DNA from: Escherichia phage vb_EcoS_bov11C2 | Sequence record: MT884012.2 | Length of the DNA: 44,700 nucleotides | Direction: 5' to 3' (one strand) | Shown here: in pieces, positions 29,891-44,659 of the stretch | Layout: every line of letters begins with the position of its first letter | How positions within the stretch are numbered: position 1 is the stretch's first letter | Translations under genes and position numbers: made by a program | The notes under the pieces: model-generated | The model's database searches: none | What the model was told of the DNA's origin: nothing | What the model saw: the letters and a program-made list of their open reading frames with translations, nothing else

Positions 29891-30064
29891 TTATTTTTGT
29901 TCTGCACGGTAGCGGCGCTGCCGTTCGCGCTCTTTCTTATTGCGGCACGATTTGCACTCTGCCCGATGCCCGTCTGGACTGCGCGCAGTTTTACCGGTGT
30001 ATTTGTGGAACTGGGATAGCGGCTTGACACAGCCGCAATTACTACAACGTTTTTCTTCAATCAT
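29891..30064 (-). CDS. small zinc-ribbon protein
   Basis: ATG 30064 with RBS GAGGA; CSNCGC ... CKSCRNK (two CxxC pairs); 57 aa; promoter-like element with motif variants at 30108-30129. Confidence 0.4.
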   Translation of the reverse strand: MIEEKRCSNCGCVKPLSQFHKYTGKTARSPDGHRAECKSCRNKKERERQRRYRAEQK

Positions 30065-30104
30065 CTCTAAAATCCTCGATATGGCTAACCGGCACACTAT
30101 ACCG

Positions 30105-30383: not shown

Positions 30384-32674
30384 CACTTCCTGTACCTGTA
30401 CATGATGTCGCCTTCGGCGGCAAGTGGGAAGCCTTTCGCCCAAACAGGCAGGTCGCACATCAGCGCGCACAACTCCTCGGTTGTGTAGTCGTCAGTATCC
30501 GGCACTTCGGTTATCAGTTCATCGTGTACGGACAGTACGATCTCATATCCCGCAGCTTCAACGCCAGGCATGGACCATGCGAGGATATCGCGACACAGCG
30601 CCTGTACGATGTTTTCCGTGAGTTTGCCGCCGTAGGTGTACTGGAAGCCCCACTGGCGCGTCGTCTGATTCTCACCCTGATATTTAATGCGGGTGCTGGT
30701 GCGCTTCTTGCCGGTGTCTTCGTCAATCTCGGTCGTGACAGACAGCCCGATGCCTGGGTAGCTCATGATGCGCCCCGACGGCAACTCAATTTTCAACCAC
30801 CACCCCGCGGCGTTCGGGTCGTCGCGCTCCTCGTCGAAGGTTGGGTCGTGCTTCGCCTTCGTGCGCACAATCTTGAGCGCTTTCCTACCGTCCGGGCGAA
30901 CGTTAGCGCCCGCCCAGTATGCTTTGCCCGGATTGCGGATTGCGCACAACACCGCGTCCTCAAGCTCGGCCCAAAAGGCTACCGTCTTCGGGTGAGCCTC
31001 ACGCCACATACGTTTGATCGCGTCACAGGTAAGCCATACGTTTTTCGGCAGTATGTAGGTTGGGCGCTCATCCTTCTTGCCAGGCTTCGGCGGGCGCTTA
31101 GCTTCGTTAATGCGGGCGTACTCATAACCGCGTTTCGCCGCCGCCCAAATGTGATCCGGGAATGTACCCTTCATCACGTCCGCCATAGTGTAAAGGTCGA
31201 GGCCCAGGTTTTTAGCGAACTGCAAGAACGCCGCGACGCCGCCACCATAGCCCAGTCCCAATTCACACGCCTTTCCGATCTGGCGTAAGTCTTTGCGGTT
31301 GGCTTTGATGTAATCCGGGTCAAGGCCGAACATCTTACCGGCAGTCTCGCAGTAAATATCGCGGCCCGCCTTAAACACCATGAGCGCTGTTTTCTCGCCC
31401 GCGATCCAGGCAAGTCCACGCCCTTCCACGTTGGAGTAGTCCGCTACGACAAACTTCTTGCCCTTAGCCGGGATAATGCACCCGCGAACGGTCGAGGCTG
31501 TTAGCTTAGATATGTCATACGCCCAGTGCGCGGTCCCGCGTAACAGGGAATTGATGCCGTTGGTGAGCATGTGCGACCGGACCCAAAAAGCAACGTCGCT
31601 CTCGCCTTCGCGGCGCTTAATCTTCCCTTCGTGATCGTCGCTATACTCGCCGCGTGCCAGGTTTTGAGGCTGGAAGCCTTTACCCGCCCAGCGCAGCGTG
31701 CGCTTTGCGCCACCATACTGAAGACACCCACGGCGGCGACCGTCGGCAGACAGGCCATTAACGAGCGGATTGTACTTAGTCGATGCCGTTGATGACGCGC
31801 CGAGGCGCATTTCGATAAGCGCTTTGCCTTCGTCGGGGAAGTCCGGGTCTTCAAGCAGGTCGTTAAGTGTGGATTTCTGCGCGTTGTGGATTGTGAACGC
31901 CGGGGCGATATCACGCAGGATTGGCAGGAAGTCATTGCCTGTCAGTTTACCACCAAATCGCTCCCAGGCTTCCTCCTTCAATTCTTCCTTATGCGCCTGC
32001 ACCGCTTTGATCGCGGCGTTCGCCAGGTCAACGTCCACATAGAAGCCGCGGTCGTTGATCAACTGGTCGATAAGCAGGATTTCATCTTCCTTCGGGGTAT
32101 TACCCCAGTCCGGTATGCGCCAGTAGACCTCCCGCATCGCGATAATATCCAGCGCGGCATATCGCAGAAATTTGGCCCATTCTTCAGGGTGAGTCTCGCG
32201 AGTGTAGCGGCGTATTTTGTAGGTCTTAGGGGTAGGCTTACAGAATCGTTTGATCAGCGCCTTGCCTGCCTTATCCTTCGCGTGCTCTGCGTCAACGCCC
32301 AGCACCTGACACTGCATATCGAGGCTACCCGGCAGCGCGTGCCGAAAGGCCATAATCATGGTATCTTCGATCTGGCTTACCGGCAGGTCGATTCCCCACT
32401 TCTCACGGATAACCAGGCGGTCAAACAGGAGGCCGTTAGCCATCACGATTTTTGCTTTCTTGCGGGATACCTGACGGAGCGCCTTGCGCAGTTCACGCGG
32501 CATTGTTGGGGATTCAGTGGCATCCCATGTCTGCACGCGGCCTTCGTCGATGGCGTAGGTGCAAATCATAATCTCGGTGGTTGGGTGCTCTGCGTAGGCG
32601 TACGCCCCTACTTTCTTCAGGTCAACCCCGCTGAATGTCTCGGTGTCGAGAAACAAGCGTTCGAAGTCTTTCAT
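30383..32674 (-). CDS. DNA polymerase, family A, with 3'-5' exonuclease domain
   Basis: Exo I motif FLDTETFS; motif B RQIGKACELGLGYGGG (R-x3-K-x6-YG); motif C VHDELI; 763 aa. Confidence 0.9.
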   Translation of the reverse strand: MKDFERLFLDTETFSGVDLKKVGAYAYAEHPTTEIMICTYAIDEGRVQTWDATESPTMPRELRKALRQVSRKKAKIVMANGLLFDRLVIREKWGIDLPVSQIEDTMIMAFRHALPGSLDMQCQVLGVDAEHAKDKAGKALIKRFCKPTPKTYKIRRYTRETHPEEWAKFLRYAALDIIAMREVYWRIPDWGNTPKEDEILLIDQLINDRGFYVDVDLANAAIKAVQAHKEELKEEAWERFGGKLTGNDFLPILRDIAPAFTIHNAQKSTLNDLLEDPDFPDEGKALIEMRLGASSTASTKYNPLVNGLSADGRRRGCLQYGGAKRTLRWAGKGFQPQNLARGEYSDDHEGKIKRREGESDVAFWVRSHMLTNGINSLLRGTAHWAYDISKLTASTVRGCIIPAKGKKFVVADYSNVEGRGLAWIAGEKTALMVFKAGRDIYCETAGKMFGLDPDYIKANRKDLRQIGKACELGLGYGGGVAAFLQFAKNLGLDLYTMADVMKGTFPDHIWAAAKRGYEYARINEAKRPPKPGKKDERPTYILPKNVWLTCDAIKRMWREAHPKTVAFWAELEDAVLCAIRNPGKAYWAGANVRPDGRKALKIVRTKAKHDPTFDEERDDPNAAGWWLKIELPSGRIMSYPGIGLSVTTEIDEDTGKKRTSTRIKYQGENQTTRQWGFQYTYGGKLTENIVQALCRDILAWSMPGVEAAGYEIVLSVHDELITEVPDTDDYTTEELCALMCDLPVWAKGFPLAAEGDIMYRYRK

Positions 32675-32841
32675 TGCTTTATCCTCACTACGGCGTCAGC
32701 GCTGCCGATCATGGAGAAGATGCCGTCGGACAGGGCGATCTCTTCTCCATTGTTGCGAATCTCGGCAACTGTGAAATACTCGCCCAGCAATTTGGACCAT
32801 ACCTGCATTCCGACTTTTACTTCGCTGGCTTTAATACGCAT
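32671..32841 (-). CDS. small hypothetical protein (56 aa)
   Basis: Not in the ORF track (under 60 aa); ATG 32841, stop overlaps the polymerase ATG; fills the gap between SSB terminator and polymerase. Confidence 0.3.
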   Translation of the reverse strand: MRIKASEVKVGMQVWSKLLGEYFTVAEIRNNGEEIALSDGIFSMIGSADAVVRIKQ

Positions 32842-32856
32842 TTTTCATTGTCCTAT

Positions 32857-32880
32857 TAAAAAGCCCGCATTAAGCGGGCT
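32857..32880 (-). terminator. intrinsic terminator after SSB gene
   Basis: Minus strand AGCCCGC-loop-GCGGGCT followed by U-run. Confidence 0.6.
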
Positions 32881-32899
32881 TGAATAGTGGGCTTTGCCC

Positions 32900-33682
32900 T
32901 TAACGGCGGCGACGTTTACGTGGCGCTTCGTCTTCGTCGTCGTCCTCATCTTCGTCATCGCGTGGCTTACGACGTTTGCGAGGTTTTTCATCTTCCTCAT
33001 CGTCGTCGTCATCGCGGCGCTTGGATTTCTTGGACTTGCGCGGCTTGTCATCTTCATCATCGTCATCACGACGTTTTGACTTTTTGGACTTGCGCGGTGC
33101 TTCGTCTTCGTCGTCGTTGTCCAGGTCTTCGTCGGAACATGAAGACCCGCCACCTCCGAAGGCTTCGCCGTCTTCACGGAATCGCAGACCCAGCAAGCCA
33201 GCCCCGAGACCCTTGCCGTTGGTATTGTTCCACGCCCAGATATCAAGGGACACGTTGCAATAACAACCGGAGTAGATCTCCTGGCCTTCAATCTCGTCGC
33301 CGTCGATGGTCAGACCTTGTTCGGTCTGCTTCTCGCCGAGTGACGTTTGAATGATAGGCTGTTTGAACGATTTGGCGTTGATATACAACATGCCTTCGAA
33401 TTCTTCGGTCACTTCGTCACGCTCGTCACCGTCGCGGACTGCGCATTCCTTAGAATCCTGGGCGTAGTGGCGGTCCATCCACTTATCGGCATTCTTCTCG
33501 GATTTCAGCTTGTCGGTGAGCACTGCGCGCGCTGCCGCTTCCACTTTGTCCACCTGCGGATCTTCTTTATCCAGAAGAATCACGGCACGGTATGCCGGTT
33601 TTTGTCCATCCTGTTTAGGGGTATCACGTTCCCAGATTTTCAGGAAGCATACGCGCACATTTTTCAGGTTGACTTTAGCCAT
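32900..33682 (-). CDS. ssDNA-binding protein (T7 gp2.5-like / DUF2815-like) with mixed-charge repeat tail
   Basis: ATG 33682 with RBS GAGGAA; N-terminus MAKVNLKNVRVCF typical of this family from memory; C-terminal 90 aa of alternating PRKSKKSKRR and DDDDEDD blocks. Confidence 0.55.
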   Translation of the reverse strand: MAKVNLKNVRVCFLKIWERDTPKQDGQKPAYRAVILLDKEDPQVDKVEAAARAVLTDKLKSEKNADKWMDRHYAQDSKECAVRDGDERDEVTEEFEGMLYINAKSFKQPIIQTSLGEKQTEQGLTIDGDEIEGQEIYSGCYCNVSLDIWAWNNTNGKGLGAGLLGLRFREDGEAFGGGGSSCSDEDLDNDDEDEAPRKSKKSKRRDDDDEDDKPRKSKKSKRRDDDDDEEDEKPRKRRKPRDDEDEDDDEDEAPRKRRRR

Positions 33683-33772
33683 TTTCCAATTCCTCATTTT
33701 CACATGTATCGGGGTTATTGGAAGCCACCCCGTTCGGCTTGGTTGCCAATTTACTTGGTTGCGCCTGAGCGG

Positions 33773-34015
33773 TCAAGCATTTTCATTAAAAAGATTTCTG
33801 GTCACGTAGTTGGTCGCGTTCTCGATCCAGCTTAACGGCGGGCGGTTGATGTTCTTCTCCACCCAATCGACGGCAGCTTCGCTATAGCCGTCATCCAGCC
33901 AGCGGGTCGGATGTCGAATCATCCACGCCACCATTAACACGCCTTGCACGCAATGCAGGATAAAGCCCAGCGCGCCGAGCAAAAACATCAATAAGATTGC
34001 GAATACTTTATTCAT
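33773..34015 (-). CDS. small membrane protein
   Basis: N-terminal TM helix AILLMFLLGALGFIL; 80 aa; overlaps the exonuclease stop. Confidence 0.45.
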   Translation of the reverse strand: MNKVFAILLMFLLGALGFILHCVQGVLMVAWMIRHPTRWLDDGYSEAAVDWVEKNINRPPLSWIENATNYVTRNLFNENA

Positions 34016-35438
34016 TACTTAAGTCCTCGTCGGTAGCTTCAGACCACGCAGGGCGCGGGTCGTCGATTGGTGCTAATACCGGTTTTGCCGGTGCGCGCGT
34101 GATTTTATCACACAACTTCGCCCACACTTTCGGCTTCTCGTCCTTCAATACCTTCTCGGCATCAGTAGGGCTGAGTAATGTTTCTTTGTACATAACATCG
34201 CGCTTGATCCGGGCCTTCGTGAAGATCTCAATCACTTCGCTCTCGTCCGCCCACTTGCGGATTCCTTCCTTACCGGCAACCATCTTGAGGCCCAGCGATT
34301 CGCCATCACCCGCCATTACGGCCTTGAACACCGCGGACTCGATAGCCTTGATGTGCTGGCGCATTGCGTCAAGACCTTCATATGCCTTGCGCAGTTCCGC
34401 CGCGCTCATAGCGCCGGGGGCCGCTTCTTTCTTGCCACGCTTCGCACGTCGTGCCGCTTTGCGGGCTTCGCGGGCCATATTGCGGTCGTGATTGGCGCAT
34501 TCTTCCTCTGTCGCAATACTCACGTCGTCGCCCAGGTCTTCGTCTGTTGCCGTTGGTTGGGTCATCGTGTCGATTGCGGCCTTAGCGCGGGCGCTACACT
34601 GATCCGCAAATCGGCACCACTGGCACGCATCAACGCTCGGTCGGAAGTCGGCACGGGTGAGTCCCTTTTTGCCGCGGGCGTACGCCTCCAGGGCGGCGAT
34701 AGCACGCTTGGACGCAAACTTCGCGAATATCTCCAGGGCTTCTACCGAAATATCCCACTCCGACGCCCCGCCGCAATACGGCTGGAAGATAACCAGGCGC
34801 ACGGTCGTGATGTCGTACATGGATTGCAGCTTGCGCAGCAGGCCGAGCGCATACAGCATAAGCTGTTTGTTTTCTTTCGCCTCGACCTTATGCCGCCCCG
34901 TCTTCAGGTCGCCAACAATCAGCATGTACGTGCCGTCGGTCTTCTTCATGACCATGACCATATCGGCAGTACCGAACGTCTTAACCCGGTTGCCGTCGAT
35001 CTCGAAGCCAGAGTGTAGGACGCGGGTCAGATCGGTGCGCATCTCAAGCTGGACAAACTCCGCCACTTCGAGGAGCGGTCGCCAGTGGTCGACGTATGCG
35101 TCGCACTGTTTCACCATATCGTCGTTGACCAGTACGCCGCCTTTCGGCGCTTTCGGGTGTGCCTTTACCGGTCCCTTTCCTTCGTTCTCGACGTAGCACC
35201 CTTTGTACGTCTTCGCGGTTATCAGCTTCTCACCGGCGATAATGCGGTTTAGCACCACCTCAGATACGGTGTGCATACTCGTACCGTTAATCGCGGCTTG
35301 CCCGGATTCGTTCGGGATATCTTTTTCCACCACCAGGGCGGCTGGGCAACCCATCCATTTTTTAGCTCCGGATGGGCCGAGTAAAGAGTGTTCCGTGTTG
35401 CTACCGGATTGCGTTTTACGTTTTGGTTTAATCGTCAT
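34008..35438 (-). CDS. PD-(D/E)XK exonuclease, Cas4/RecB-like with Fe-S cysteine motif
   Basis: GDLKTGRHKVEAKENKQLMLYALG (D ... E-x-K ... Q..Y) and C-x2-C-x5-C (CQWCRFADQC) plus an N-terminal Cys; 476 aa. Confidence 0.7.
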   Translation of the reverse strand: MTIKPKRKTQSGSNTEHSLLGPSGAKKWMGCPAALVVEKDIPNESGQAAINGTSMHTVSEVVLNRIIAGEKLITAKTYKGCYVENEGKGPVKAHPKAPKGGVLVNDDMVKQCDAYVDHWRPLLEVAEFVQLEMRTDLTRVLHSGFEIDGNRVKTFGTADMVMVMKKTDGTYMLIVGDLKTGRHKVEAKENKQLMLYALGLLRKLQSMYDITTVRLVIFQPYCGGASEWDISVEALEIFAKFASKRAIAALEAYARGKKGLTRADFRPSVDACQWCRFADQCSARAKAAIDTMTQPTATDEDLGDDVSIATEEECANHDRNMAREARKAARRAKRGKKEAAPGAMSAAELRKAYEGLDAMRQHIKAIESAVFKAVMAGDGESLGLKMVAGKEGIRKWADESEVIEIFTKARIKRDVMYKETLLSPTDAEKVLKDEKPKVWAKLCDKITRAPAKPVLAPIDDPRPAWSEATDEDLSNE

Positions 35439-35626
35439 TATTCCACCCTTGAAAATTGAGCAATGTAATAGTCGTGTTTAACATTGGCCCGCTTCGCGGC
35501 TTCGTTCATGGTCGATGCCAGTTCTCGGGCTTGCGTCCAGCAGCAATTCCAGTTTTGATTCATAACAATTTCTGGTTGCTCGTCGCCGGTGATACGGCAA
35601 CGAAATAAAACAAAGAATATAGCCAT
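35438..35626 (-). CDS. hypothetical protein
   Basis: 62 aa ORF whose ATG directly follows the upstream stop and whose stop overlaps the exonuclease ATG; no recognisable motif. Confidence 0.35.
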   Translation of the reverse strand: MAIFFVLFRCRITGDEQPEIVMNQNWNCCWTQARELASTMNEAAKRANVKHDYYIAQFSRVE

Positions 35627-35878
35627 TTATTTCGTCTCCCAGCGGTCGATTGTTTTTGCTTCGGATGCAACTGCGAAGCGAACATATTCCAGATTGGAAT
35701 CCGCCCAAATATAAAAGTCGGGGTTAGTAAAGGTGGTGCGCTTAATTTGCGCGGGGGTATTGCGGCGTTTATCTATTACGGCAACGCGTGACTGAAAGCT
35801 GCCGATGCGTTCGAATAGCCAATAGTACGGGCGCTGGTCGCGGGAGTCCACCGCCTCGATTAGCGTGAAGCGTGCCAT
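35627..35878 (-). CDS. hypothetical protein
   Basis: ATG 35878 with RBS GAGGA 8 nt upstream; 83 aa. Confidence 0.45.
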   Translation of the reverse strand: MARFTLIEAVDSRDQRPYYWLFERIGSFQSRVAVIDKRRNTPAQIKRTTFTNPDFYIWADSNLEYVRFAVASEAKTIDRWETK

Positions 35879-35891
35879 TGTCTCGTCCTCT

Positions 35892-35918
35892 AAAAAGAGG
35901 CCCGCAGATTAGCGGGCC
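35892..35918 (-). terminator. intrinsic terminator after first early-left gene
   Basis: Minus strand GGCCCGC-loop-GCGGGCC followed by UCUUUUU; between gene 35927-36445 and gene 35627-35878. Confidence 0.55.
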
Positions 35919-35926
35919 GGAATATA

Positions 35927-36445
35927 TTAATCTTCCAGTTCGAAATAGGTTTCGACGATTTCTTTTAACTCTGTGTGGAAGTCTTCGACGTCGTCATCTT
36001 CCAGCTTGGCGATTGATTTGATCTCGAACGATTCCAGCAGGTCGTCGAATTCGTCGTTCGCGTCGTCGTCATCACCCCCGGCAATAATAGCGGCATACTG
36101 TTTGATCTCGTCGCGCATCTCTGCCAGCGGATCGGCATCTTTCTTACCTTTGCCTTTCGCCGGGGCTTTTTTACCCTTCGCAGGTTTTTCGTCTTCGGCT
36201 TCTTCATCGTCGTCATCTTCTACGACTTCTTTTTTGGACTTACCTTTCGCCGGGGCTTTTTTAGATTTAGCCGGTTTTTCGTCTTCGGCTTCATCGTCGC
36301 CATCTTCGACAACTTCTTTTTTCGCCTTAGACGGCTTCTTGTCTTCCTGTTTACCAACGGCAGCGCCAACGGTTTCATAATGCTTTGCAATGGTTTCCAG
36401 TGCTACTACGCCGCGAGTGATCAGGTTTACGATTTGCTCAAACAT
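35927..36445 (-). CDS. highly charged tandem-repeat protein, first gene of the leftward early operon
   Basis: ATG 36445 with RBS GGAG; two 29-aa tandem repeats (KKEVVEDGDDEAEDEKPAKSKKAPAKGKS) and acidic C-terminus. Confidence 0.5.
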   Translation of the reverse strand: MFEQIVNLITRGVVALETIAKHYETVGAAVGKQEDKKPSKAKKEVVEDGDDEAEDEKPAKSKKAPAKGKSKKEVVEDDDDEEAEDEKPAKGKKAPAKGKGKKDADPLAEMRDEIKQYAAIIAGGDDDDANDEFDDLLESFEIKSIAKLEDDDVEDFHTELKEIVETYFELED

Positions 36446-36641: not shown

Positions 36642-36671
36642 ATAATAGATTGGTTGCAGGATGGGTGTCAA
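36642..36671 (-). promoter_or_regulatory. strong sigma70-like early-left promoter
   Basis: Minus strand TTGACA (36666-36671), 18-nt spacer containing TGCAACCAAT, TATTAT (36642-36647); about 190-nt leader to ATG 36445. Confidence 0.55.
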
Positions 36672-36682: not shown

Positions 36683-36742
36683 AAAAAAAAAAGCGCCGAG
36701 GCAAAATGCGACGGCGCTAACCAATAAGAGACAATGAGACGG
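36683..36742 (-). ncRNA. candidate small RNA (orphan promoter plus strong terminator)
   Basis: Minus-strand terminator AGCGCCG-13nt loop-CGGCGCT followed by U10 (36683-36718) with no upstream gene on that strand; TTGAAA-N16-TAATAA promoter at 36749-36776. Confidence 0.25.
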
Positions 36743-36788
36743 GAATTATTATTACACGCGTGCGCGCCCGTTTCAATATCCAAAGGAT

Positions 36789-36834
36789 TTGACACCGTGC
36801 AGTTTTGGGTGTAGTTTCGTTGGTCATTAACCAA
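36789..36834 (+). promoter_or_regulatory. early-right promoter with inverted repeat at the start site
   Basis: TTGACA (36789-36794), 17-nt spacer, TAGTTT (36812-36817), then TTGGTcattaACCAA (36820-36834) before RBS GAGGG and ATG 36849. Confidence 0.45.
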
Positions 36835-36848: not shown

Positions 36849-37178
36849 ATGAATGTAAACGACGCAATCGAAATGTTAACGAAGACTGTTTGCAGTGAGA
36901 CAAGCCGGTCATGGGCATACACCGATGCCGTAGGGGCTGTGTTATTTGAAATCGAACGACTGCGCAGTATCGAAAAAGAATTGCGCGCCAGGCTGGAACT
37001 ACTCAACGGTACAGCAGCAAGCAAGCTGCAAAAACACAATGAAGAAATGGAAGAATACAAAAAGCAGGTTATCCGTTTGCGCGCCGAGGGCAAATCCTGG
37101 GCGATGATTGCTGAGTTGACCGGAATTAATCAGAGCACAGTTCGCTCCTGGGTACGCAATAATAAAACTTCTAAGTAA
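36849..37178 (+). CDS. HTH DNA-binding protein, candidate early regulator
   Basis: C-terminal helix-turn-helix SWAMIAELTGINQSTVRSWVRN; first gene of the rightward operon. Confidence 0.55.
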   Translation: MNVNDAIEMLTKTVCSETSRSWAYTDAVGAVLFEIERLRSIEKELRARLELLNGTAASKLQKHNEEMEEYKKQVIRLRAEGKSWAMIAELTGINQSTVRSWVRNNKTSK

Positions 37179-37188
37179 GGCCGCGGCA

Positions 37189-39453
37189 ATGAGCTTAATT
37201 AAATTCGCTGTAACAAAACCCGCTAAAAAAGGCGAAAAAGCCAGGGCGGAAAACTTCCAGATGACGACCGATGAGTTTTTCGAATTTATCAAAGATGCGA
37301 AAGAAATATCCTCGGTGCATATCAACAAGACGGAAGATAAAGCCGAGTATGCGCGCCGCAAGCGTAAGGCCGATGGCATCGTGGCGTATACCAGTGACGG
37401 ATTGCGTCGTAAGACCAGTGCGGTGGACCGCTCGATCCTGTTCTTTGATATTGACCGCACCGACACCCGCACCCTGCGCCGCTGCCGTAAGGCGTTCATC
37501 GACGCGGGTCTGGAACACGTATTTCACACCACCACCGGCGACCGCCACCCGCTGAAGGGCGGCACGCGTTGCGCCCGTTTCCTGGTGCTCACTGACAAGC
37601 CTGTACCGGCTGAAGACCTGGGCCGCGTACAATATGCACTATTACACCAACTGGGTCTGTCAGATGTGGACTTCGACGATTGCACGAAAGACACAAACCG
37701 CCTGATGTACCTGCCACACCAGCAGTCTGTTATTAAGTGCCACTATGGCAAGCGCGCCAATGTGCGTCGTCTACTCCGTCGGGCGGACAAGCTGGGGGTG
37801 GAAAAAGAGGAAGTACGCCGCGAGCTTACCCAGGGCGACGACGCAGTGGCAGACGGCATTCTGGACTGGTGCTTCCAGGCCGGATTCGAGGAGTTATCTT
37901 CTGGTCGTGGTTATGAAGTGCCGTGTCCTAACGAACATCTGCACAGCGGCGAAGGGTCGACGGCTATCATGGTCAAGGATGGTGAGATCCGTTTCAAGTG
38001 TATGCACACTGGCAACGAGTGTTGCTCGGAACTGAACAGACACCAGCACCTGGCGCTACGTCTTATCGGGATCCCGGACCACCTGAACGTCGAACCGCAC
38101 AACATGTCACGTAAGCAAATCGCCGCCATCCTCCCAGGACTGGACGACGAGGAAGTGGAATCATGCTATGCGCATATCGTTGATGCGGTCGGAGACGGCG
38201 ACGAGTACGGCGTATGTACCGACGCTGACCTGGATAACGAACCGGTCGCACTGTTCAGTAAGCACGACCCTATCATCGAGGGGTTGATTAACTTTAAATC
38301 GACCTGGTATATGGCTGGCGAGTCTAACATCGGTAAATCGTTCTACGTGCTGGGCCAAATGGGCGCTGTTGCCGCGGGTATTCCGTTCGGCGGTGCGAAG
38401 GTCGTCCAGTCTCATTGCTTCTATTTCGACGCGGAAGGTGGCGAAGCCTCCAACCAGCGTAAGGAAGCATTGCAGATCAAATATGAGCACGACCTGGACA
38501 AGCTGCACATTATCGATCTGCAATCACGCGGCTGGGATATCACCAGCAAGTCCGGCTTGCGTGAAGTTATCAGCTTCATCAACCGCACCGCTAACGGCGA
38601 ACCGGTTGGCCTGGTGGCGTTCGACTCACTCAACCAGACGGTTGCGTTGCGGTCCGCCGATGCCAAACCGTTCGACGAGAACAACGCCAGCGATATGGGC
38701 GAAGTGGTCAAAGCGCTGAAGGCCATCGCGGAAAATACAGGCGGCAGCGCGGGCGTCATCCACCACCCGGCGAAGGGTGCAAACGGCAGCAGATCTCCCC
38801 GTGGGTCCGGTGCGCTGCATGGTGCTGTCGATTCTGCGTTCTTCCTGGAGCAACCAGACGACAACCAGCCCGGACAACTGAACCTGTATCACGAGAAGGC
38901 ACGTAACGGCATCAAGCAAGCGCCGCGCGGCTTCGTCCTGCTCAAGTGCAAGGTGAAGGTGGATCTCCGCAAGTCCGAGGCGTTCGAGGCACACCAGTCC
39001 ACCAGCACAGGGCCGGACTTCGGCGATGTAGTTGCCGGTTGGGACGTCAAGCCAATTGCATCCACGCCACGCGACGAGACTCTTTACCTCGTACCGGTCG
39101 CCCTGGCACCGTTCGCCATCGAACAGGCGAAGGCCGCGGGCAAGGCCGCAGTTAAGGAGGAGAACGCCGCAGGACCGCGCAACGAAAAAGAGAAAGTGCT
39201 TTATGCGGCACTGGAAAAACTGATGGAAGATAACCCGGACCATACCGGATTCAGTAAATCGGCAATTGTACGCCAGGCGGGATTGGCAAAAGGCGGCACA
39301 TCGACGAAGGCAATCGACGATATGGTCGAGCGCGGCGTGCTCGGTTTTTATACAGATCCGCACACCGGGGCCATCTATGGGTCGTCAAATATCGTCATCA
39401 AAACGAATATACCCATCACGCTTTCGGCGACCGATGACGACCTGAAAGATTAA
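37189..39453 (+). CDS. primase-helicase (AEP-type primase-polymerase N-domain fused to RecA/DnaB-like ATPase)
   Basis: N-terminal hydrophobic DxD motif LFFDIDRTD; central Walker A GESNIGKS and Walker B VGLVAFDSLNQ; 754 aa. Confidence 0.7.
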   Translation: MSLIKFAVTKPAKKGEKARAENFQMTTDEFFEFIKDAKEISSVHINKTEDKAEYARRKRKADGIVAYTSDGLRRKTSAVDRSILFFDIDRTDTRTLRRCRKAFIDAGLEHVFHTTTGDRHPLKGGTRCARFLVLTDKPVPAEDLGRVQYALLHQLGLSDVDFDDCTKDTNRLMYLPHQQSVIKCHYGKRANVRRLLRRADKLGVEKEEVRRELTQGDDAVADGILDWCFQAGFEELSSGRGYEVPCPNEHLHSGEGSTAIMVKDGEIRFKCMHTGNECCSELNRHQHLALRLIGIPDHLNVEPHNMSRKQIAAILPGLDDEEVESCYAHIVDAVGDGDEYGVCTDADLDNEPVALFSKHDPIIEGLINFKSTWYMAGESNIGKSFYVLGQMGAVAAGIPFGGAKVVQSHCFYFDAEGGEASNQRKEALQIKYEHDLDKLHIIDLQSRGWDITSKSGLREVISFINRTANGEPVGLVAFDSLNQTVALRSADAKPFDENNASDMGEVVKALKAIAENTGGSAGVIHHPAKGANGSRSPRGSGALHGAVDSAFFLEQPDDNQPGQLNLYHEKARNGIKQAPRGFVLLKCKVKVDLRKSEAFEAHQSTSTGPDFGDVVAGWDVKPIASTPRDETLYLVPVALAPFAIEQAKAAGKAAVKEENAAGPRNEKEKVLYAALEKLMEDNPDHTGFSKSAIVRQAGLAKGGTSTKAIDDMVERGVLGFYTDPHTGAIYGSSNIVIKTNIPITLSATDDDLKD

Positions 39454-39548
39454 AATTTGCGCGCATTGGTTGCCGTTTTAAGTGTTTTTATCTGGTCGTA
39501 TTGGTTGCCGTGTAGTGTAGATATAATGAATAGTTATGCATTGAAACT

Positions 39549-39716
39549 GCATAAACTAAGCGGGACAAAAAGCGGGACAAACAAGGGGCGGGACAAAGCG
39601 GGACAGCACCCCCGTCCCGCCCCGGATGACGCGGCTTCCAGAGGAGCGGGACAGCGGGACAGCACCCCAGTCTTTCAGACTAGACGGGGGTCAACGGCCC
39701 CCCTCGTCTGAGACTG
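39549..39716. repeat. GGGACA iteron array R2 (copy of R1 units)
   Basis: 70-bp unit 39549-39618 and 52-bp hairpin unit 39665-39716 each differ by 1 nt from R1; six GGGACA copies. Confidence 0.85.
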
Positions 39717-39876
39717 AATAAAATCCGGGGATTGCAAAACACACGGCAGCATGATGCGAAGTGCGGTCGCGGATGAACTAGGCAACCAATGCTAGTAGCA
39801 TTATGCTGAGTGAAAAATGCGGTTTGCAGTTGCAGCAGATAGCGATCAACTTTTTCATGCGCGTGATTAATATTGG

Positions 39877-39921
39877 TTGCATCCGCCCAGGCACCCTGCT
39901 ATATTGGTTGCACACCAACAG
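39877..39921 (+). promoter_or_regulatory. sigma70-like promoter with ATTGGTTGCA pair and operator-like inverted repeat
   Basis: TTGCAT (39877-39882), 17-nt spacer, TATATT (39900-39905), TTGGTTGCACACCAA at the predicted start, then RBS AGGAGG and ATG 39933. Confidence 0.5.
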
Positions 39922-39932
39922 GAGGGCGGAAC

Positions 39933-40112
39933 ATGAAAACCGAAATGGTTAATAAGCGCGAAATCAAGATCGGCGATACGGTAGTCCACAACGGGGAGCT
40001 TCGCACTGTGTGCAAGCGAGCGTTTAGCATCGATGGATTTATGGGCCTGCTACTTTGGGGCGACAGCTATCGTTTAGGGCATAAACTGGTTGAGAGGGTT
40101 ACGGAACTATGA
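39933..40112 (+). CDS. hypothetical protein
   Basis: ATG 39933 with RBS AGGAGG; 59 aa. Confidence 0.45.
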   Translation: MKTEMVNKREIKIGDTVVHNGELRTVCKRAFSIDGFMGLLLWGDSYRLGHKLVERVTEL

Positions 40113-40435
40113 AATCGATTATCTGGAATTACGCAATGGCTATGGCGGCGGCACAAGAAGCGGCGGAGTTCGCCGGTGAAGGAGCGGAAGCGGTCGAAAG
40201 ACTAGCGGCAGCGTGGTCCGTTGTTCGCGTAACGCAGCAGGCCATCGCCTGTATGCTTGAGCGCCGCTTCGACACGATGGCGGAGATCCAGCCGTTGGCG
40301 AACGCTATCCAGGACTACGCGCTTGCATTTGCCCGTGAGCGCCTGGCTTATCGCTTCGGGATCGGTGAGACGGCAGCGACAAACGTTGCCCGGATTAAAG
40401 CCCAGCGCGAACTATTCGCCCAGCTTGCGAAATAA
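40109..40435 (+). CDS. hypothetical protein
   Basis: ATGA overlap with the upstream gene; 108 aa, Ala-rich. Confidence 0.5.
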   Translation: MKSIIWNYAMAMAAAQEAAEFAGEGAEAVERLAAAWSVVRVTQQAIACMLERRFDTMAEIQPLANAIQDYALAFARERLAYRFGIGETAATNVARIKAQRELFAQLAK

Positions 40436-40444
40436 GGGGCCAAA

Positions 40445-40714
40445 ATGAGCCGTAGACGAGCCAAACAGCTTTCGTGGCATATTCCCCTGCATTGCATACG
40501 AATATGGGCTAAGAATGCGACTGAGGGCGATTCTGTATTATGGTGTTATCGCGATGACGTTAAGCCGTTAACGCAGACTCGCTACTTGCACCAGTTCGCA
40601 GCACAACACGATTTCAGGGTGCGGACTTCCTTGCAACCAATGGGAATACGTATTACATTACGCCGAAAGCCAGCCATTGAGCGGGTAGGCAAACACTGGA
40701 GACTGAGCAAATGA
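40445..40714 (+). CDS. hypothetical protein
   Basis: 89 aa ORF in the early-right operon series. Confidence 0.45.
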   Translation: MSRRRAKQLSWHIPLHCIRIWAKNATEGDSVLWCYRDDVKPLTQTRYLHQFAAQHDFRVRTSLQPMGIRITLRRKPAIERVGKHWRLSK

Positions 40715-40863
40715 CACCAATGCAAATAACGCTAATGGCAGGGTATTCGCAGCAATTCGTAGACCTGTTATCTTGCATAGCGGACTATGAGATGGACGGC
40801 ATCGCTACGGTGTGCGATGGCGACACGAAGACTGTCGACGAGATTGAGGAGACTGAGCAATGA
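40711..40863 (+). CDS. small hypothetical protein (50 aa)
   Basis: Not in track; ATG 40711 with RBS GGAGA; ATGA-coupled at both ends. Confidence 0.3.
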   Translation: MTPMQITLMAGYSQQFVDLLSCIADYEMDGIATVCDGDTKTVDEIEETEQ

Positions 40864-41414
40864 AATTACTATTCCGCCGTAAGCACGATGGCCGCATCCT
40901 GAAGCCGATCCAGACCCTTGAGGCGCACGTCCGTTTGCACCACGAAGCAAGCGATCGCGTCTGGTGGGCGAAGAAAGACAAGCTGCCGGAAAACTTCGAC
41001 GTACTCACACACGATATTGCGCGCGGCGATGTGCTGCGTGACCTTCGCGACGGGCAATTGTGGGTTGTGGAGCACACCTCCCAGCTCGGCTTGCGGTTGA
41101 AGTCCGGTATCTTGTTGAAGGGGATGACGTACTTCGGCCTCGTAAATTACGAGCGAGTGGGTCGCAAATACAGCCTTCGGGACCGCCAGCCTCATGAGCG
41201 CGTGGAGTTCCGCAAGTCGCAGCCCGCGTATGCCACTTACGACGCGAGCAAAGTGATGGAGCCGATCCGCCAGGCCACGCGTGAGAGAGTCAATCGCTTT
41301 GATGCCGTGACGAATGCACAGCGCCATGCGCAGGAATACGGCGTTGGATTCATCCGTGTCGAACCAGACGGCAGCATGAAGGCCATCGACCCGCGCTCGG
41401 TGATTCTGAAATGA
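40860..41414 (+). CDS. hypothetical protein
   Basis: 184 aa; same RBS-start module GGAGACTGAGCAA-ATG as at 40698. Confidence 0.5.
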   Translation: MKLLFRRKHDGRILKPIQTLEAHVRLHHEASDRVWWAKKDKLPENFDVLTHDIARGDVLRDLRDGQLWVVEHTSQLGLRLKSGILLKGMTYFGLVNYERVGRKYSLRDRQPHERVEFRKSQPAYATYDASKVMEPIRQATRERVNRFDAVTNAQRHAQEYGVGFIRVEPDGSMKAIDPRSVILK

Positions 41415-41551
41415 GTGCGACTATCCGTGATATGCTGATGCACAACCGCTTTGAGATAGGCGGTCGGGTGTTTCGCAATTACTTCGTGGCGCGTGCCTGG
41501 GCGCGCCATATTGGCAAACCAGAGGGGGCAATACGATGCTACACGATTTGA
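41411..41551 (+). CDS. small hypothetical protein (46 aa)
   Basis: Not in track; ATGA overlap with the upstream gene; ends just after the next ATG. Confidence 0.3.
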   Translation: MSATIRDMLMHNRFEIGGRVFRNYFVARAWARHIGKPEGAIRCYTI

Positions 41552-41823
41552 TTTATTGGTTTGGTATGGCCAGCATGTTATGCCTGATCACGGCAGGGCT
41601 TGGCGCGATATGGGTATTCCTGGTATGGCCCGCGGTGGAAGCTGCCAGTATTACCCGCATGACGTTCCAGATATACAAGCGCCGTGGCATCACGGAGCAC
41701 CCGACCAGGTTGCGCATGTGGTGGCTATGGTATCGGGATATGATAGGGGGCCGGATGTTCGAGGCCGTCCGATCGGAAGGGTGGGAGTGGAAAGGCGTCG
41801 GCAAGTGGTCCATTTTCGATTAA
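41536..41823 (+). CDS. membrane protein
   Basis: RBS AGAGGGGG; N-terminal hydrophobic stretch of about 30 aa; last gene before the terminator. Confidence 0.5.
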   Translation: MLHDLIYWFGMASMLCLITAGLGAIWVFLVWPAVEAASITRMTFQIYKRRGITEHPTRLRMWWLWYRDMIGGRMFEAVRSEGWEWKGVGKWSIFD

Positions 41824-41840
41824 TTATGCAAGCGTGATAT

Positions 41841-41876
41841 AGTCCCAGTGAGCTAAAACTTACTGGGACTTTTTTT
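41841..41876 (+). terminator. intrinsic terminator abutting the lysis cassette start
   Basis: Perfect 9-bp stem AGTCCCAGT / ACTGGGACT with 12-nt loop, then T7 running into ATG 41877. Confidence 0.7.
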
Positions 41877-42167
41877 ATGGATAAGCTAAACGAGTGGTTA
41901 TTTGCCATCGCATGTCTGGCTGGCGGCTTCGTAGGCGCACGCATTCATGGTGAGGCTACGAAGGGGCCGCTAAACTTTGTTTTGTATGTTGTAGTTGGCT
42001 TCCTGTGTGCCATATTTGGCGCACCGGCTATCGCTGAGTGGGCTGGTTTGTCGGGTGAGCGCACTGTCGCCGGTTTAGGCTTCGTAACCGCGATCTTCTG
42101 GATGCCAATCGCCGACCGGATCAGGGAGACTATTGCGTCGTTCCGACTTCCGGGGGGTGCAAAATGA
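41877..42167 (+). CDS. holin candidate (three predicted TM segments)
   Basis: 96 aa with three hydrophobic segments; immediately upstream of a second membrane protein and the endolysin. Confidence 0.5.
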   Translation: MDKLNEWLFAIACLAGGFVGARIHGEATKGPLNFVLYVVVGFLCAIFGAPAIAEWAGLSGERTVAGLGFVTAIFWMPIADRIRETIASFRLPGGAK

Positions 42168-42409
42168 TTATCTCCGTCCTGTTGTTTGTTATCATCGGGG
42201 CTTCGTCCCTGTTTAACGTGTATGCGCCGTCCGTCCGGGATGGCATTTTCGGTCGGGTGCTGTATCTGTTAACGGCAATGGTCTGTGTTATCGGATTGTT
42301 GCAAACAGGAGACGTATCTGATACCACCTGGACCGCGTTAATCTGGCTGTTTGCATTGCGCACGCTGCGTAATGCTGTTTTGAATGGGGTAAAACATGCG
42401 ATTCAGTGA
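42164..42409 (+). CDS. second small membrane protein (holin/antiholin candidate)
   Basis: 81 aa, two TM segments; ATGA overlap upstream; overlaps the endolysin start. Confidence 0.45.
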   Translation: MIISVLLFVIIGASSLFNVYAPSVRDGIFGRVLYLLTAMVCVIGLLQTGDVSDTTWTALIWLFALRTLRNAVLNGVKHAIQ

Positions 42410-42887
42410 CAACGGTCTGAGATTTACGGCAGCATGGGAGCAATTCAGCCCAGTGCCGTATTTCGCGACTAAGAAAGAGCAGGCCCGCGGCCTGTATACC
42501 TGGGGCTATGGTCACACCGGCACTAATCCGCCGCGGAGCATTACCCGTGCGGAGGCACTGGAGCTACTCAAGCGCGATGTGGTGTATGCCGAGAACTGGG
42601 TGAACAAGTACGCGCATAAGAGCATTAACCAGGCGCAATTCGACGCGCTGGTGGACCTGGTTATCAATGCAGGTCAAGGTCCGATCGTACCGGATGACGT
42701 CGCGAATGATTTCGATGATGCGGTCCGCCTGGGCGACTGGGCTAAGGTACGTGCTACTCTGCCGCAGTTCCGCAAGCAAGGTGGCGAAGTGCTTAAGGGT
42801 CTGGTGCGCCGTGCAATCGGCAGACAGGCGTTGTTTGATGGTAAGCAGTGGGACGTTGCCGAGAAAATCGGGCGTAACGCAGCATAA
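42396..42887 (+). CDS. endolysin (lysozyme-like muramidase)
   Basis: 163 aa; N-terminal KKEQARGLYTWGYGHTG resembles the catalytic Glu region of phage lysozyme-like enzymes; follows holin candidates. Confidence 0.65.
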   Translation: MRFSDNGLRFTAAWEQFSPVPYFATKKEQARGLYTWGYGHTGTNPPRSITRAEALELLKRDVVYAENWVNKYAHKSINQAQFDALVDLVINAGQGPIVPDDVANDFDDAVRLGDWAKVRATLPQFRKQGGEVLKGLVRRAIGRQALFDGKQWDVAEKIGRNAA

Positions 42888-42902
42888 TACGAGGAACACA
42901 GT

Positions 42903-43070
42903 ATGTTAAAAAGCATTCTTGATCATAACGCTGACGCGCTCGCAGCGCTGGCTAAAACCGAAGACCCTGGCGCACGCGCTATCATCGCGGACACTATCAG
43001 CCATGCAGGCGTCTTTGACGCGAAGCTGCCTAGCCCGCCGCCACAGGAAGAATCTGGCCCAGTGACGTAA
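42903..43070 (+). CDS. small hypothetical protein (55 aa)
   Basis: Not in track; ATG 42903 with RBS GAGGA; ends just before the terminator at 43077. Confidence 0.35.
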   Translation: MLKSILDHNADALAALAKTEDPGARAIIADTISHAGVFDAKLPSPPPQEESGPVT

Positions 43071-43076
43071 ACAATC

Positions 43077-43101
43077 AAGCCCGGTTAATTCCGGGCTTTT
43101 T
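43077..43101 (+). terminator. intrinsic terminator after lysis cassette
   Basis: AAGCCCGG-ttaatt-CCGGGCTT followed by TTTT. Confidence 0.7.
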
Positions 43102-43307
43102 ATTGCTTGACTCGCAACCAACACAGGGGCCATACTGCAACCAATCAACTGGAGGAGTAATCAAGATGGCACGTAAAGATATTTGGGTATTAGCGATCTG
43201 GACCACCGCGGCTTTTATCGGCATGGTTATTTGCGAATTGATATAGCCCGCCGCCATACGGACCGTGGTATATTGTCCACGGTCCACTAATCAGGAATTA
43301 ATTAAAT

Positions 43308-44450
43308 ATGCACCCGCAAACTAAAATTACCGATGAGCAATTGATCGCAGAAATTCAGGCAGGGACTACGGTTAAAGATATTGCGAAGAAATACGGGATT
43401 GCCCTACGCAATGTTTATATGCGGAAAGCCCGCCTGTCGAAAAAAGGCATTGGACACGGTAACGATGCCGTAATACGCAAGCGCGTTGCCGATGGGTTTG
43501 GGGTTAAGCGCGTATCGGCCCTGGTGCGCGGCAATGGCGAAGAGGTCATGTCGTGGGTCATCACTGAGCAGGACAAAGAGCGCCAACTCGAAGCCATGCG
43601 CGCTGTTGTCGAGGGTATGAACAGCGAAATCACACCGGCAGCGCCAGTAAAAGCCCCGCCAGTACCGATCCAGGCGCTCGACTTGCTCAACCTGTACACC
43701 GTGTCCGACTTCCACCTGGGCATGTTGGCATGGGGCGAGGAGACTGGCGAAGACTGGGATATGGCGATTGCCGAAGACCTGTTCTACCGCTGGTTTGTCG
43801 AAGCCTTCGCACGCGCACCAGACGCAGGCACTGCCGTAATCAATATCCTCGGTGATATGGCGCACTTTGATAGCCTCGATGCCGTCACTCCCGCCAGCGG
43901 GCACGTACTGGACGCGGATACCCGCTACCAGAAGCTGGTCCGCTACATGATTCGCATGGTGCGTAACGTGGTGGAACTGGCGCTGCAAAAACACCACAAA
44001 GTCAAACTGCTAATCGTCCAGGGGAATCATGACGAGTCTGGCATGATTTGGCTGGCTGAAATGTTCAATACCCTGTACGAGAACGAGCCGCGCGTCGATG
44101 TGGATACGTCCCCGGACGTCTACAAAATGGTGCAGCACGGTAAGACCACACTATTTTTCCACCACGGGCACAAAGCGCGATTCGATGTTATCGAGCAGGT
44201 TATGATCGCTAAATTCAGACAGGCGTTCGGGTCGAGCGAATACAGCTACGCGCACGTAGGCCATTTGCATCACCAGAAGATTGTTGAATCCCGCAACATG
44301 ATTGTTGAACAGCACAGGACGCTCGCAGCGAAAGACGCCTACGCCAGTCGTGGCGGTTGGATGTCAGGTCGCAGCGCAAACGTCATCACCTATAGCGCCA
44401 ACTACGGCGAAGTAGCGCGCTTAACCATTAGCCCGGAAATGTTGAAATGA
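43308..44450 (+). CDS. calcineurin-like metallophosphoesterase with N-terminal HTH-like region
   Basis: Ordered motifs D-x-H (VSDFHLG), GD (ILGDMAH), GNHD (VQGNHDE), HHGH, GHLHH. Confidence 0.65.
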   Translation: MHPQTKITDEQLIAEIQAGTTVKDIAKKYGIALRNVYMRKARLSKKGIGHGNDAVIRKRVADGFGVKRVSALVRGNGEEVMSWVITEQDKERQLEAMRAVVEGMNSEITPAAPVKAPPVPIQALDLLNLYTVSDFHLGMLAWGEETGEDWDMAIAEDLFYRWFVEAFARAPDAGTAVINILGDMAHFDSLDAVTPASGHVLDADTRYQKLVRYMIRMVRNVVELALQKHHKVKLLIVQGNHDESGMIWLAEMFNTLYENEPRVDVDTSPDVYKMVQHGKTTLFFHHGHKARFDVIEQVMIAKFRQAFGSSEYSYAHVGHLHHQKIVESRNMIVEQHRTLAAKDAYASRGGWMSGRSANVITYSANYGEVARLTISPEMLK

Positions 44451-44659
44451 TCAGACAAGTATTCATGAGCACGCAGGCCACCCGCCTGAAAGAACTACGC
44501 AAGCAACTCGAAGGCTTGCGCCGATTTGAACGAACGGCAGCGGCAGTAGGAATGTCGATGGACGAGAGGATCGAAATACTGTCGCAAATACGCTACACAG
44601 AAGGCGCGATAAGAGAAGTACAAAGCATGTTAACCCGATACTACGGGCGCGACGTTTAA
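44447..44659 (+). CDS. hypothetical protein
   Basis: 70 aa ORF, ATGA overlap with the upstream gene, followed by a putative terminator. Confidence 0.45.
   Translation: MIRQVFMSTQATRLKELRKQLEGLRRFERTAAAVGMSMDERIEILSQIRYTEGAIREVQSMLTRYYGRDV

Follow-up and report, generated by a model that had tools for sequence, protein, structure and literature searches.

Exact 8-bp words within predicted promoters of Escherichia phage vb_EcoS_bov11C2 and an early protein that may read them

Escherichia phage vb_EcoS_bov11C2 (sequence record MT884012.2) carries, between positions 39,872 and 39,921, copies of a short sequence, TGCAACCAA, that recurs in the gaps between its genes, and the question raised by this locus is what the recurrent sequence does. 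An earlier note on the same DNA had offered two answers, i.e. an extended promoter consensus or a set of sites for one phage regulator. We find that the repeated unit in the 44,700 nucleotides analyzed (hereafter the window) is an exact 8-bp core word, GCAACCAA, contained in that 9-mer, and that it is placed in predicted promoters and conserved across the genus Dhillonvirus. Judged from the sequence and its conservation, these words are very probably protein-binding sites embedded in promoters, whichever protein reads them. Our preferred reading, held with modest confidence, joins two claims: that the words are the dispersed operator set of a phage regulator, and that a 109-amino acid (aa) protein with a helix-turn-helix (HTH), encoded first in the rightward early operon, is their reader. 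Of the two answers, the regulator is thus the one favored, by promoter embedding, selection, genus-wide conservation, the outgroup pattern, and co-occurrence with this early HTH protein, which the note had itself named; the binder and the direction of regulation stay at candidate level.

The repeated word and its conservation

The 9-mer TGCAACCAA occurs 12 times in the window when both strands are counted, against a mean of 0.52 and a maximum of 3 in 100 dinucleotide-preserving shuffles. All 12 copies lie exactly where they had been reported, the twelfth being at 40632 within the gp51 gene, and the excess holds at a chance expectation slightly higher than the 0.34 proposed before. The core GCAACCAA is present in 19 exact copies in the window, of which 15 are fully intergenic, 3 (25252, 25264, and 30121) lie within ~20 nt of the end of a coding sequence, and 1 (40633) is gene-internal. 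The intergenic share of the genome is 7.2%, which gives a binomial P = 2e-14 for the intergenic excess of the word. The commonest 10-mer of the whole genome is ATTGGTTGCA, and the real motif unit is GCAACCAA with T preferred on either side. Copies are frequently paired, in line with the earlier description, with start-to-start spacings of 14, 17, 12–13, 16, 23, 31, and 35 bp in direct pairs and 12 bp in the inverted pair (25252/25264).

The word is exact rather than degenerate. Eight further sites had been listed as one-mismatch variants of the 9-mer; all of them are present (30108, 30120, 33739, 33755, 39466, 39501, 39781, and 43113, two of which had been placed one position off), but 7 of the 8 are exact GCAACCAA cores with another 5' base, and the only true variant is the one at 30108 (GCGACCAA). 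A sequence profile built from 117 sites in six genomes carries information at the eight core positions and in the flanking T preference only, and the same profile on 44 sites from the three most divergent genomes reaches a maximum of 0.22 bit elsewhere within 45 nt. True one-mismatch 8-mers of GCAACCAA are not enriched in intergenic DNA (3 seen vs 2.8 expected), so that selection acts on the exact word; a degenerate motif family is ruled out by the same count.

The last 8.7 kb of the window align over their entire length, at 100.0%, with vb_EcoS_bov16_1 (MT884013.2, Dhillonvirus) and with its sister isolates; MT884013.2 is likewise 44,700 bp long, and its annotation, with 62 genes, fits the window coordinates. 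The window nevertheless departs from MT884013.2 in one base or more, since at position 16934 (tail assembly gene) it has GAAACCAA, as against GCAACCAA in MT884013.2 and in the phages HK578, Sponge, and WFI.

Five other Dhillonvirus genomes (HK578, CHD5UKE2, Sponge, WFI, and Zar3M) hold 18–21 copies of GCAACCAA each. We measured conservation by alignments centered on each site in six genomes, and these reveal that the copies keep their position while the DNA between and around them drifts. Specifically, 96% of core columns are invariant vs 72% of flanking intergenic columns (Fisher P = 8e-13), and pairwise divergence is 1.0% in the core vs 12.2% in the flanks. These alignments indicate that the exact word is under strong purifying selection.

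The same pattern extends to two metagenomic relatives (L007 and L011), which have the same gene order and ~71–72% DNA identity where they can still be aligned. These hold 13 and 12 copies in 20 kb, respectively, vs 0.62 expected, and the copies are mostly intergenic. At orthologous promoters in both relatives, the register of the word is kept and the remaining spacer is changed. For example, at the leftward early promoter the window has TTGACA-cccatcct-GCAACCAA-tc-TATTAT, L007 has TTGAC-GCAACCAA-c-GCAACCAA-tc-TAGTAT, and L011 has TTGACG-gatgtgat-GCAACCAA-tc-TAATAT, with the arrangement GCAACCAA-tc-TAnTAT common to all three.

In the two outgroups compared, the word is not linked to promoters. 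The Jerseyvirus "buks", whose isolation host was E. coli K-12 MG1655 and whose replication module is related (its DNA polymerase is 65% identical to that of this phage), contains one copy, i.e. the chance level, and no comparable intergenic word. Phage T1 contains eight copies, 7 of them inside genes and none promoter-linked, and is only partly useful as a negative control.

Other over-represented words were also seen. T1 (L010) has one of its own, AACCA(A/G)TCAGGA, with 14 copies as ACCAGTCAG and 11 as ACCAATCAG; it has an AACCA(A/G)T core in common with the Dhillonvirus motif, 22 of 26 copies are inside genes, and several stand immediately 5' of a Shine-Dalgarno sequence and start codon. This T1 word may be unrelated to the Dhillonvirus motif. 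The coding DNA of the window is strongly enriched in the words ACGGCAGCG (15 copies), CGCTGCCG (30 copies), and ACGGCAAC (22 copies), and so is that of HK578.

Placement of the word in predicted promoters

The genome comprises a rightward block (36849–44659, running on into 77–4953) of early, lysis, terminase, and head genes, a leftward block (24059–36445) of replication and recombination genes, and a structural operon from 6353 to 21118, with small divergent units near 5.1–6.2 kb and 21.1–22.3 kb. These phages are described as lytic (PMC8967787), and no integrase, partition gene, or protelomerase is found among the 62 annotated genes. The gaps that need a promoter all carry the word—i.e. the divergent regions of clusters A, B, and G, and those of clusters H and I after strong terminators—while terminator-only gaps are without it. 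The only strong promoter-like site that lacks a full copy is at 36789–36817, ahead of the gene for the HTH protein.

Reading the sequence around the copies confirms the earlier description that they overlap sigma70-like -35 hexamers (TTGCAT) or lie in spacers and start regions. In a consensus scan, copies fall within three of the better sigma70-type matches (36671–36642, 33776–33748, and 43107–43136). In a second recurring design, the reversed word supplies the -35 (TTGGTTGCAT), with a -10 hexamer 17–18 nt further on; instances are found at 27182–27154, 39877–39905, 6263–6234, 22394–22366, and 30124–30096. Overlap with promoter-like elements is also supported against the intergenic background, as a -10-like hexamer stands at the expected distance from the word more often than from random intergenic positions (P = 0.006, 0.003, and 0.0003), with the caveat that some of these hexamers are formed in part by the flanks of the motif itself.

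Relative to the -10, four copies occupy the register -39..-32, all of them reversed, and five occupy -22..-15 in both orientations. Two copies each are found at -8..-1 (reversed) and -6..+2 (forward), and the registers -34..-27, -29..-22, and -27..-20 have a single copy each. Orientation is likewise mixed, being forward in the predicted promoters of clusters G, F, and I (P_G, P_F, and P_I) and reversed in P_D, P_H2, P_A-left, P_B-left, and P_E.

Given both orientations, several registers, and no partner, the word is not a fixed element read by the polymerase or by a phage sigma factor. As such, the "extended promoter consensus" of the earlier note, taken as a fixed element read by polymerase, is not supported: at least five registers to the -10 are used, and no partner at a fixed distance is found within 45 nt. 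A bipartite or extracytoplasmic function (ECF)-like promoter with a fixed -10 partner is ruled out because there is no information beyond the motif within the same 45 nt. A structured RNA signal is unlikely, since copies face both with and against the direction of transcription and the window has no Rfam matches at gathering thresholds.

The individual sites are as follows, taken from left to right. Cluster A (6228–6249, + strand) lies in the divergent region between gene 5884–6198 (-) and the structural operon that starts at 6353 (+). It consists of direct GCAACCAA copies at 6228–6235 and 6242–6249, which flank TATACT, and it is invariant in the six genomes; the first copy is within a 16-mer, GTTGGTGTGCAACCAA, common to cluster H2. 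On the - strand, 6234–6263 reads TTGCAT-N18-TATATT, with the pair at -22..-15 and -8..-1. In the rightward direction, the pair stands at about -63 and -77 of TTGCGA-N16-TAATAT (6271–6298), a fully conserved candidate promoter. We also note that a ~42-bp block at 6258–6300, TTGCAAGCGAATTTTGCGATTATTTTTATCGCTGATAATATTA, is invariant in the six genomes and more conserved than its surroundings. The block holds an inverted repeat, GCGAT-N7-ATCGC, together with the sigma70-like TTGCGA-N16-TAATAT that points toward the structural operon, and could serve as the late promoter proper or as some other control element.

Cluster B is a single copy (22391–22398, +) between the divergent genes 22114–22335 (-) and the tail-fibre gene at 22416 (+). 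Leftward, the word supplies the -35 of TTGCAT-N17-AATACT (22366–22394), and rightward it comes directly after GAGAAT. Cluster C (25252–25271), at the gp28/gp27 junction, is the inverted pair GCAACCAA-cCTA-TTGGTTGC; its - strand (25244–25273) can be read as TTGCAACCAA (the -35), followed downstream by TTGGTTGC-ag-TATCTT.

Cluster D (27162–27186, +) is a direct pair with a spacing of 17 bp in the gap that separates the HNH gene from gene 26864–27106. The transcribed (-) strand contains TTGGTTGCAT and, after a spacer, TTGGTTGCat-TATATT, and the promoter-like site at 27154–27182 is TTGCAT-N17-TATATT with words at -39..-32 and -22..-15. Immediately downstream of it, at 27107–27154 (-), is a terminator-like hairpin, GGGTGTCCggttTGGACGCCC, with a T run; a terminator is annotated in the corresponding gap of the phage WFI record, and the arrangement is kept in L011. 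Because the predicted start of cluster D is inside the left arm of this hairpin, its own transcript would escape termination, and read-through from upstream would stop.

Cluster E (30109–30128, +), at the 3' end of gp36, joins the variant GCGACCAA (30109–30116) and an exact copy (30121–30128). Its - strand (30096–30124) reads TTGGTTGCTG-N17-TATAGT, with TTGCTG as the -35. Cluster F (33739–33762, -) has two direct copies upstream of the single-stranded DNA-binding protein gene, and its promoter-like site (33748–33776; TTGACC-N17-TAAATT) takes the form TTGACC-N8-GCAACCAA-g-TAAATT-g-GCAACCAA.

Cluster G is a single copy (36650–36657, -) in the spacer (-22..-15) of the leftward early promoter-like site at 36642–36671, TTGACA-N18-TATTAT, which with 11/12 matches is the best sigma70 match of the genome. 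A possible leftward transcript of ~60 nt lies just upstream of it, at 36683–36776 (-), and is conserved in the six genomes. It has an extended -10 promoter-like sequence, TTGAAA-N17-AATAAT (36776–36748), then a strong terminator, GCGCCGTCGCATTTTGCCTCGGCGC with T10, and contains UUAUUGGUUAGC, which is close to the reversed motif; no Rfam match was found for it. Facing the other way is the promoter-like site of the regulator operon, 36789–36817 (+), which reads TTGACA-N17-TAGTTT and is without the full motif. It is followed only by the palindrome TTGGT-cattA-ACCAA, at a place where L007 has a perfect GCAACCAA.

The 479-bp gap that follows the helicase-primase gene holds three groups of sites. 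In cluster H1 (39466–39508, -), direct copies at 39466–39473 and 39501–39508 come right after the helicase-primase stop codon and upstream of TATAAT (39522–39527). Each is within a unit, gcgcaTTGGTTGCCg, of which Sponge and Zar3M have a third copy. Cluster H-mid is a single copy (39782–39789, +) that is invariant in the six genomes with flanks that vary. Cluster H2 (39873–39911, -), the locus of the earlier note, has two direct copies 31 bp apart, and its + strand reads ATTGGTTGCAT-N17-TATA-TTGGTTGC. The promoter-like site here (39877–39905) is TTGCAT-N17-TATATT, with words at -39..-32 and -8..-1; downstream are AGGAGG and the gp49 ATG (39933), and the same TTGGTTGCAT-N17-TATATT is present in L011.

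The copy in gp51 (40633–40640, +) is the sole gene-internal one, and it is conserved in the six genomes. The sequence at 40631–40659 has TTGCAACCAA followed at a distance by TACATT, i.e. TTGCAA-N17-TACATT, and it is possible on this reading that the copy marks an internal promoter. Cluster I (43114–43144, +) is a direct pair with a 23-bp spacing; a terminator (43077–43098) immediately precedes it, and downstream are a small open reading frame (ORF), a phosphoesterase gene, and the terminase genes. Its promoter-like site (43107–43136; TTGACT-N18-CATACT) takes the form TTGACT-c-GCAACCAA-N9-CATACT-GCAACCAA. Directly downstream of the pair at 43114/43137, we find an unannotated hydrophobic ORF of 26 codons at 43166–43246 (+), MARKDIWVLAIWTTAAFIGMVICELI, with a GGAGG ribosome-binding site and a start conserved in other genomes.

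A candidate reader and its rivals

The candidate binder is the 109-aa product of the gene at 36849–37178 (+), which is gp47 of phage SO-1 (PHROG 9366). In every case the gene opens the rightward early operon and immediately precedes that for the helicase-primase. A Pfam scan of 30 phage proteins identifies it as the only recognizable DNA-binding protein among them, with residues 65–105 matching HTH_23 (30.9 bits, cut-off 24.6), HTH_28 (28.5, cut-off 25), and Sigma70_r4_2 (27.7, cut-off 25.7). The GerE profile scores 15.9 against this protein, below its cut-off of 23.5. There is no Pfam hit to Sigma70_r2, and the protein is therefore not a sigma factor.

An AlphaFold model with a mean predicted local distance difference test (pLDDT) score of 88 has a helix at residues 3–15, a long helix at 21–79, and the HTH as helices 84–91 and 95–107. 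The HTH superimposes on those of SdiA, RhlR, LiaR, GerE, and NarL at ~1 A over 34–36 residues with 28–38% identity. The PDB holds no full-length structural analogues (none at E < 0.001, and the top "resolvase" hits have a root-mean-square deviation of 9–10 A), predicted viral structures give no full-length match outside the protein's own family, and a PDB sequence search returns only weak LuxR-type HTH hits. In the long helix, hydrophobic residues fill 65% of the heptad a/d positions vs 44% overall, a modest pattern from which dimerization may be proposed.

The family of this protein is small, with 24 clusters among 5.8 billion proteins in a word-index search and 3 full-length representatives at 50% identity among 1.84 billion proteins in an exhaustive profile search. 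The N-terminal 45 residues vary freely (e.g. HK578 has a different N-terminus) and the C-terminal 65 are nearly invariant; even the most divergent member (P0025, 44% identity) keeps TGIN-ST---W, which covers the turn and the first part of the recognition helix. All 8 of the 8 motif-bearing genomes encode the protein in the same syntenic position, and it is absent from the Jerseyvirus and T1, both of which are without promoter-linked copies. In GenBank it appears as "putative resolvase", "transposase", or "DNA recombination nuclease inhibitor gamma", labels that find no support here: the protein has no recombinase catalytic domain, and the HTH is its only recognizable part.

The scheme that we infer takes the binder, its dimer form, the start sites, and the choice of repression over activation from these features. 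Host sigma70 polymerase would first transcribe outward from the divergent early region near 36.7 kb, where the rightward promoter (TTGACA-N17-TAGTTT), being without a full operator, would yield the 109-aa protein as its first product. The protein probably dimerizes via the long helix and would read the 8-bp word with its C-terminal HTH. As it accumulates, it would occupy words within the polymerase footprint—i.e. over the -35, in the spacer beside the -10, or across the start—whether these are single or paired and in either orientation, and this occupancy would reset promoter use. The most likely effect is that competent-looking promoters would be turned down in the manner of Cro or P1 C1. We take repression to be the probable primary effect because the sites lie over the -35, spacer, or start, because either orientation is found at the same register, and because many of the promoters look competent unaided (8–11/12 matches). 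A second promoter downstream of the sites may be helped instead, for example in the divergent region near 6.2 kb, and at the divergent regions the protein may act in both ways, as phi29 p4 does.

Several observations weigh against this reading. The promoter assignments are consensus readings, and genome-wide consensus promoter hits are no higher than in shuffled sequence; there is also some circularity in the register pattern, as the TTGCA taken for a -35 comes from the motif. HTH operators are seldom so exact that no mismatch is tolerated. For a lytic phage, a brake that acts on almost all promoters, those of the structural genes among them, would be odd, which makes the direction of regulation uncertain. 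As to the reader, co-occurrence does not separate the 109-aa protein from other group-specific genes, and many small phage proteins without a recognizable domain could bind DNA. The word is also identical in all carriers despite a protein at 44% identity with several recognition-helix residues changed, and a frozen word with a drifting protein fits a frozen regulon and, equally, a different and more conserved reader. Covariation between recognition helix and word is uninformative here, as all 24 clusters have an essentially invariant C-terminal module and the phage that encodes P0025 has the same exact word.

The points on the reader are those that speak for another phage protein acting under the same operator logic, for example a small early one such as the 172-aa product of 35927–36445, with the HTH protein otherwise employed; most small phage proteins are indeed without a Pfam hit. 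We consider this unlikely, since the 109-aa protein is the only recognizable DNA-binder among those scanned, its gene is behind the one strong promoter-like site without a full operator, and its TGIN-ST---W is invariant, all of which are features expected of the regulator.

The awkwardness of a general repressor in a lytic phage keeps alive a reading of the same protein as an adaptor or activator. The word would then be a "phage promoter" tag, through which the 109-aa adaptor holds the host polymerase or protects promoters during host shut-off. This is a doubtful proposal, of which the interest, if true, is that one frozen word would define promoter identity for a whole virulent siphovirus lineage, through position-flexible sigma appropriation by a single 109-aa protein.

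It is quite unlikely, in our view, that the word is a promoter-specificity element read by a phage-modified host polymerase or by a sigma-region-4-like HTH adaptor, as in the T4 MotA/AsiA system. Nearly all predicted promoters except the immediate-early rightward one carry the word, the HTH scores above the curated Sigma70_r4_2 cut-off, and four promoters use the reversed word as a -35 at a constant -39..-32 with the -10 hexamer 17 nt downstream. In addition, the rightward motif-bearing promoters of clusters A and B are without any -35. Such an element is difficult to reconcile with both orientations, with at least five registers including one across the start, and with the lack of a fixed partner. 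Several motif-bearing promoters are, moreover, good sigma70 promoters alone (9–11/12 matches), and relatives of MotA or AsiA are absent from the Pfam hits of the 30 proteins scanned.

A host (E. coli) DNA-binding protein exploited at phage promoters would explain why the word is frozen across phages with strongly diverged proteins, as expected for a conserved host protein, and the exactness of the sites fits a single conserved reader of this kind. We find this decidedly unlikely, because the Jerseyvirus isolated on K-12 MG1655 has the word only at the chance level and T1 has no link between word and promoter; we also know of no E. coli regulator with this site.

Finally, the word could be a replication signal comparable to a DnaA box, i.e. 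a site for an initiator or helicase loader, with an origin in the 479-bp gap and a regulatory side role for the scattered copies. This gap (39454–39932) holds five of the 19 copies, neighbored by a CGGGACA array and a segment of 70% A+T, the HTH and helicase-primase genes share an operon, and the word is an asymmetric 8-mer in both orientations, as DnaA boxes are asymmetric sites found in both orientations. As the primary role of the word, this is highly improbable, given that the other 14 copies are at 11 other loci, each beside promoter-like hexamers, and that the iteron-like array in the gap is a different word, which is changed in L011 (to GGGGTGCCA) where GCAACCAA is unchanged; for the five copies in the gap themselves, a part in replication is conceivable. 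Lambda CII-type TTGC-N6-TTGC repeats and NtrC-like half-sites were dropped because their spacing and sequence do not fit.

The array in the gap is part of a larger repeat. The stretches 12022–12195 and 39549–39725 form a ~175-bp direct repeat, ~90% identical, with copies 27.5 kb apart, one before the tape-measure gene and one after the helicase-primase gene. Each copy has a CGGGACA array, with spacings of 12, 16, 10, 49, and 9 in one and 12, 16, 10, 48, and 8 in the other, and each also holds the hairpin CCCCAGTCTTTCAGACTAGACGGGGGTCAAyGGCCCCCCTCGTCTGAGACTG. On the + strand, CGGGACA occurs 17 times vs 2.7 expected, and 14 of the 17 copies are in the two repeat loci. In L011, GGGGTGCCA fills the gap equivalent to the one with the CGGGACA array. 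An origin, a pac site, and an iteron element are all conceivable roles for the ~175-bp repeat.

Relation to known systems and significance

A phage regulator with operators at phage promoters is a well-known kind of system, and the preferred reading can be set beside several examples. In mode of action it comes closest to dispersed, asymmetric operator sets (P1 C1, L5 stoperators) and to early switch proteins (Cro, phi29 p4). The C1 protein of the temperate phage P1 uses asymmetric operators at many promoters, which are single or paired and overlap core elements, are ~17 bp long, and tolerate mismatches. The arrangement proposed here is similar in that one small phage protein would serve many units through a dispersed word in core promoters. 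It differs in that the word is an exact 8-mer and the phage is reported as lytic with no annotated integrase, and no sequence relationship to C1 was found in the Pfam or PHROG scans.

The stoperators of the temperate mycobacteriophage L5 are tens of short, asymmetric intergenic sites that are read by one HTH protein, gp71, stand in a single orientation, and block elongation. The Dhillonvirus word is likewise short and asymmetric and occurs in intergenic gaps genome-wide, but its orientations are mixed within both leftward and rightward operons and its sites are in core promoters.

Phi29 p4 and lambda Cro are small early proteins that bind promoters and turn early ones down, and p4 also turns a divergent late promoter on; their sites are very few and are inverted repeats. 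A p4-like mode of action is conceivable for the divergent regions near 6.2 kb and 22.4 kb. In contrast to both proteins, there are ~20 sites over 12 loci here, and the folds and families are unrelated. Because the orientation rule of stoperators fails, there is no sign of a temperate life style, and the protein matches none of them, the system falls outside the P1 C1, L5, Cro, and p4 families.

The MotA box of phage T4 is a phage word at about -30 that replaces or overlaps the -35, has a fixed position and orientation, and is read by a phage protein. The word described here is also phage-specific and also replaces or overlaps the -35, but its position and orientation vary and several promoters keep a good TTGACx -35; as position and orientation are not fixed, it is not MotA-like. 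The C-terminal 35–40 residues of the 109-aa protein do resemble the HTHs of LuxR, GerE, NarL, and sigma70 region 4. Unlike those proteins, however, it has no receiver, ligand-binding domain, or sigma region 2 or 3, and instead carries a single helix of ~59 residues.

Literature searches on the motif, on Dhillonvirus promoters, and on HK578, which were in part poorly targeted, returned nothing relevant, and the Dhillonvirus genome papers that were checked make no mention of promoters, motifs, or a regulator. What appears to be new is the word itself, its near-universal presence at the predicted promoters of a lytic siphovirus, its exactness, and an orphan protein family with a long helix and an HTH.

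Dhillonviruses are common coliphages that are included in the BASEL collection (PMC8594841), are biocontrol candidates against E. coli O157 (PMC8967787), and are also used in work on bacterial defence systems. For these phages, the motif offers a ready map of about a dozen likely promoters, and it points to a single candidate master regulator that is now mis-annotated as a transposase, resolvase, or Gam. A sharp 8-bp operator with a small protein is also a possible orthogonal regulatory part or handle for phage engineering. On the preferred reading, the group would provide a clean natural example of a regulon whose word is frozen while its putative reader has drifted to 44% identity.

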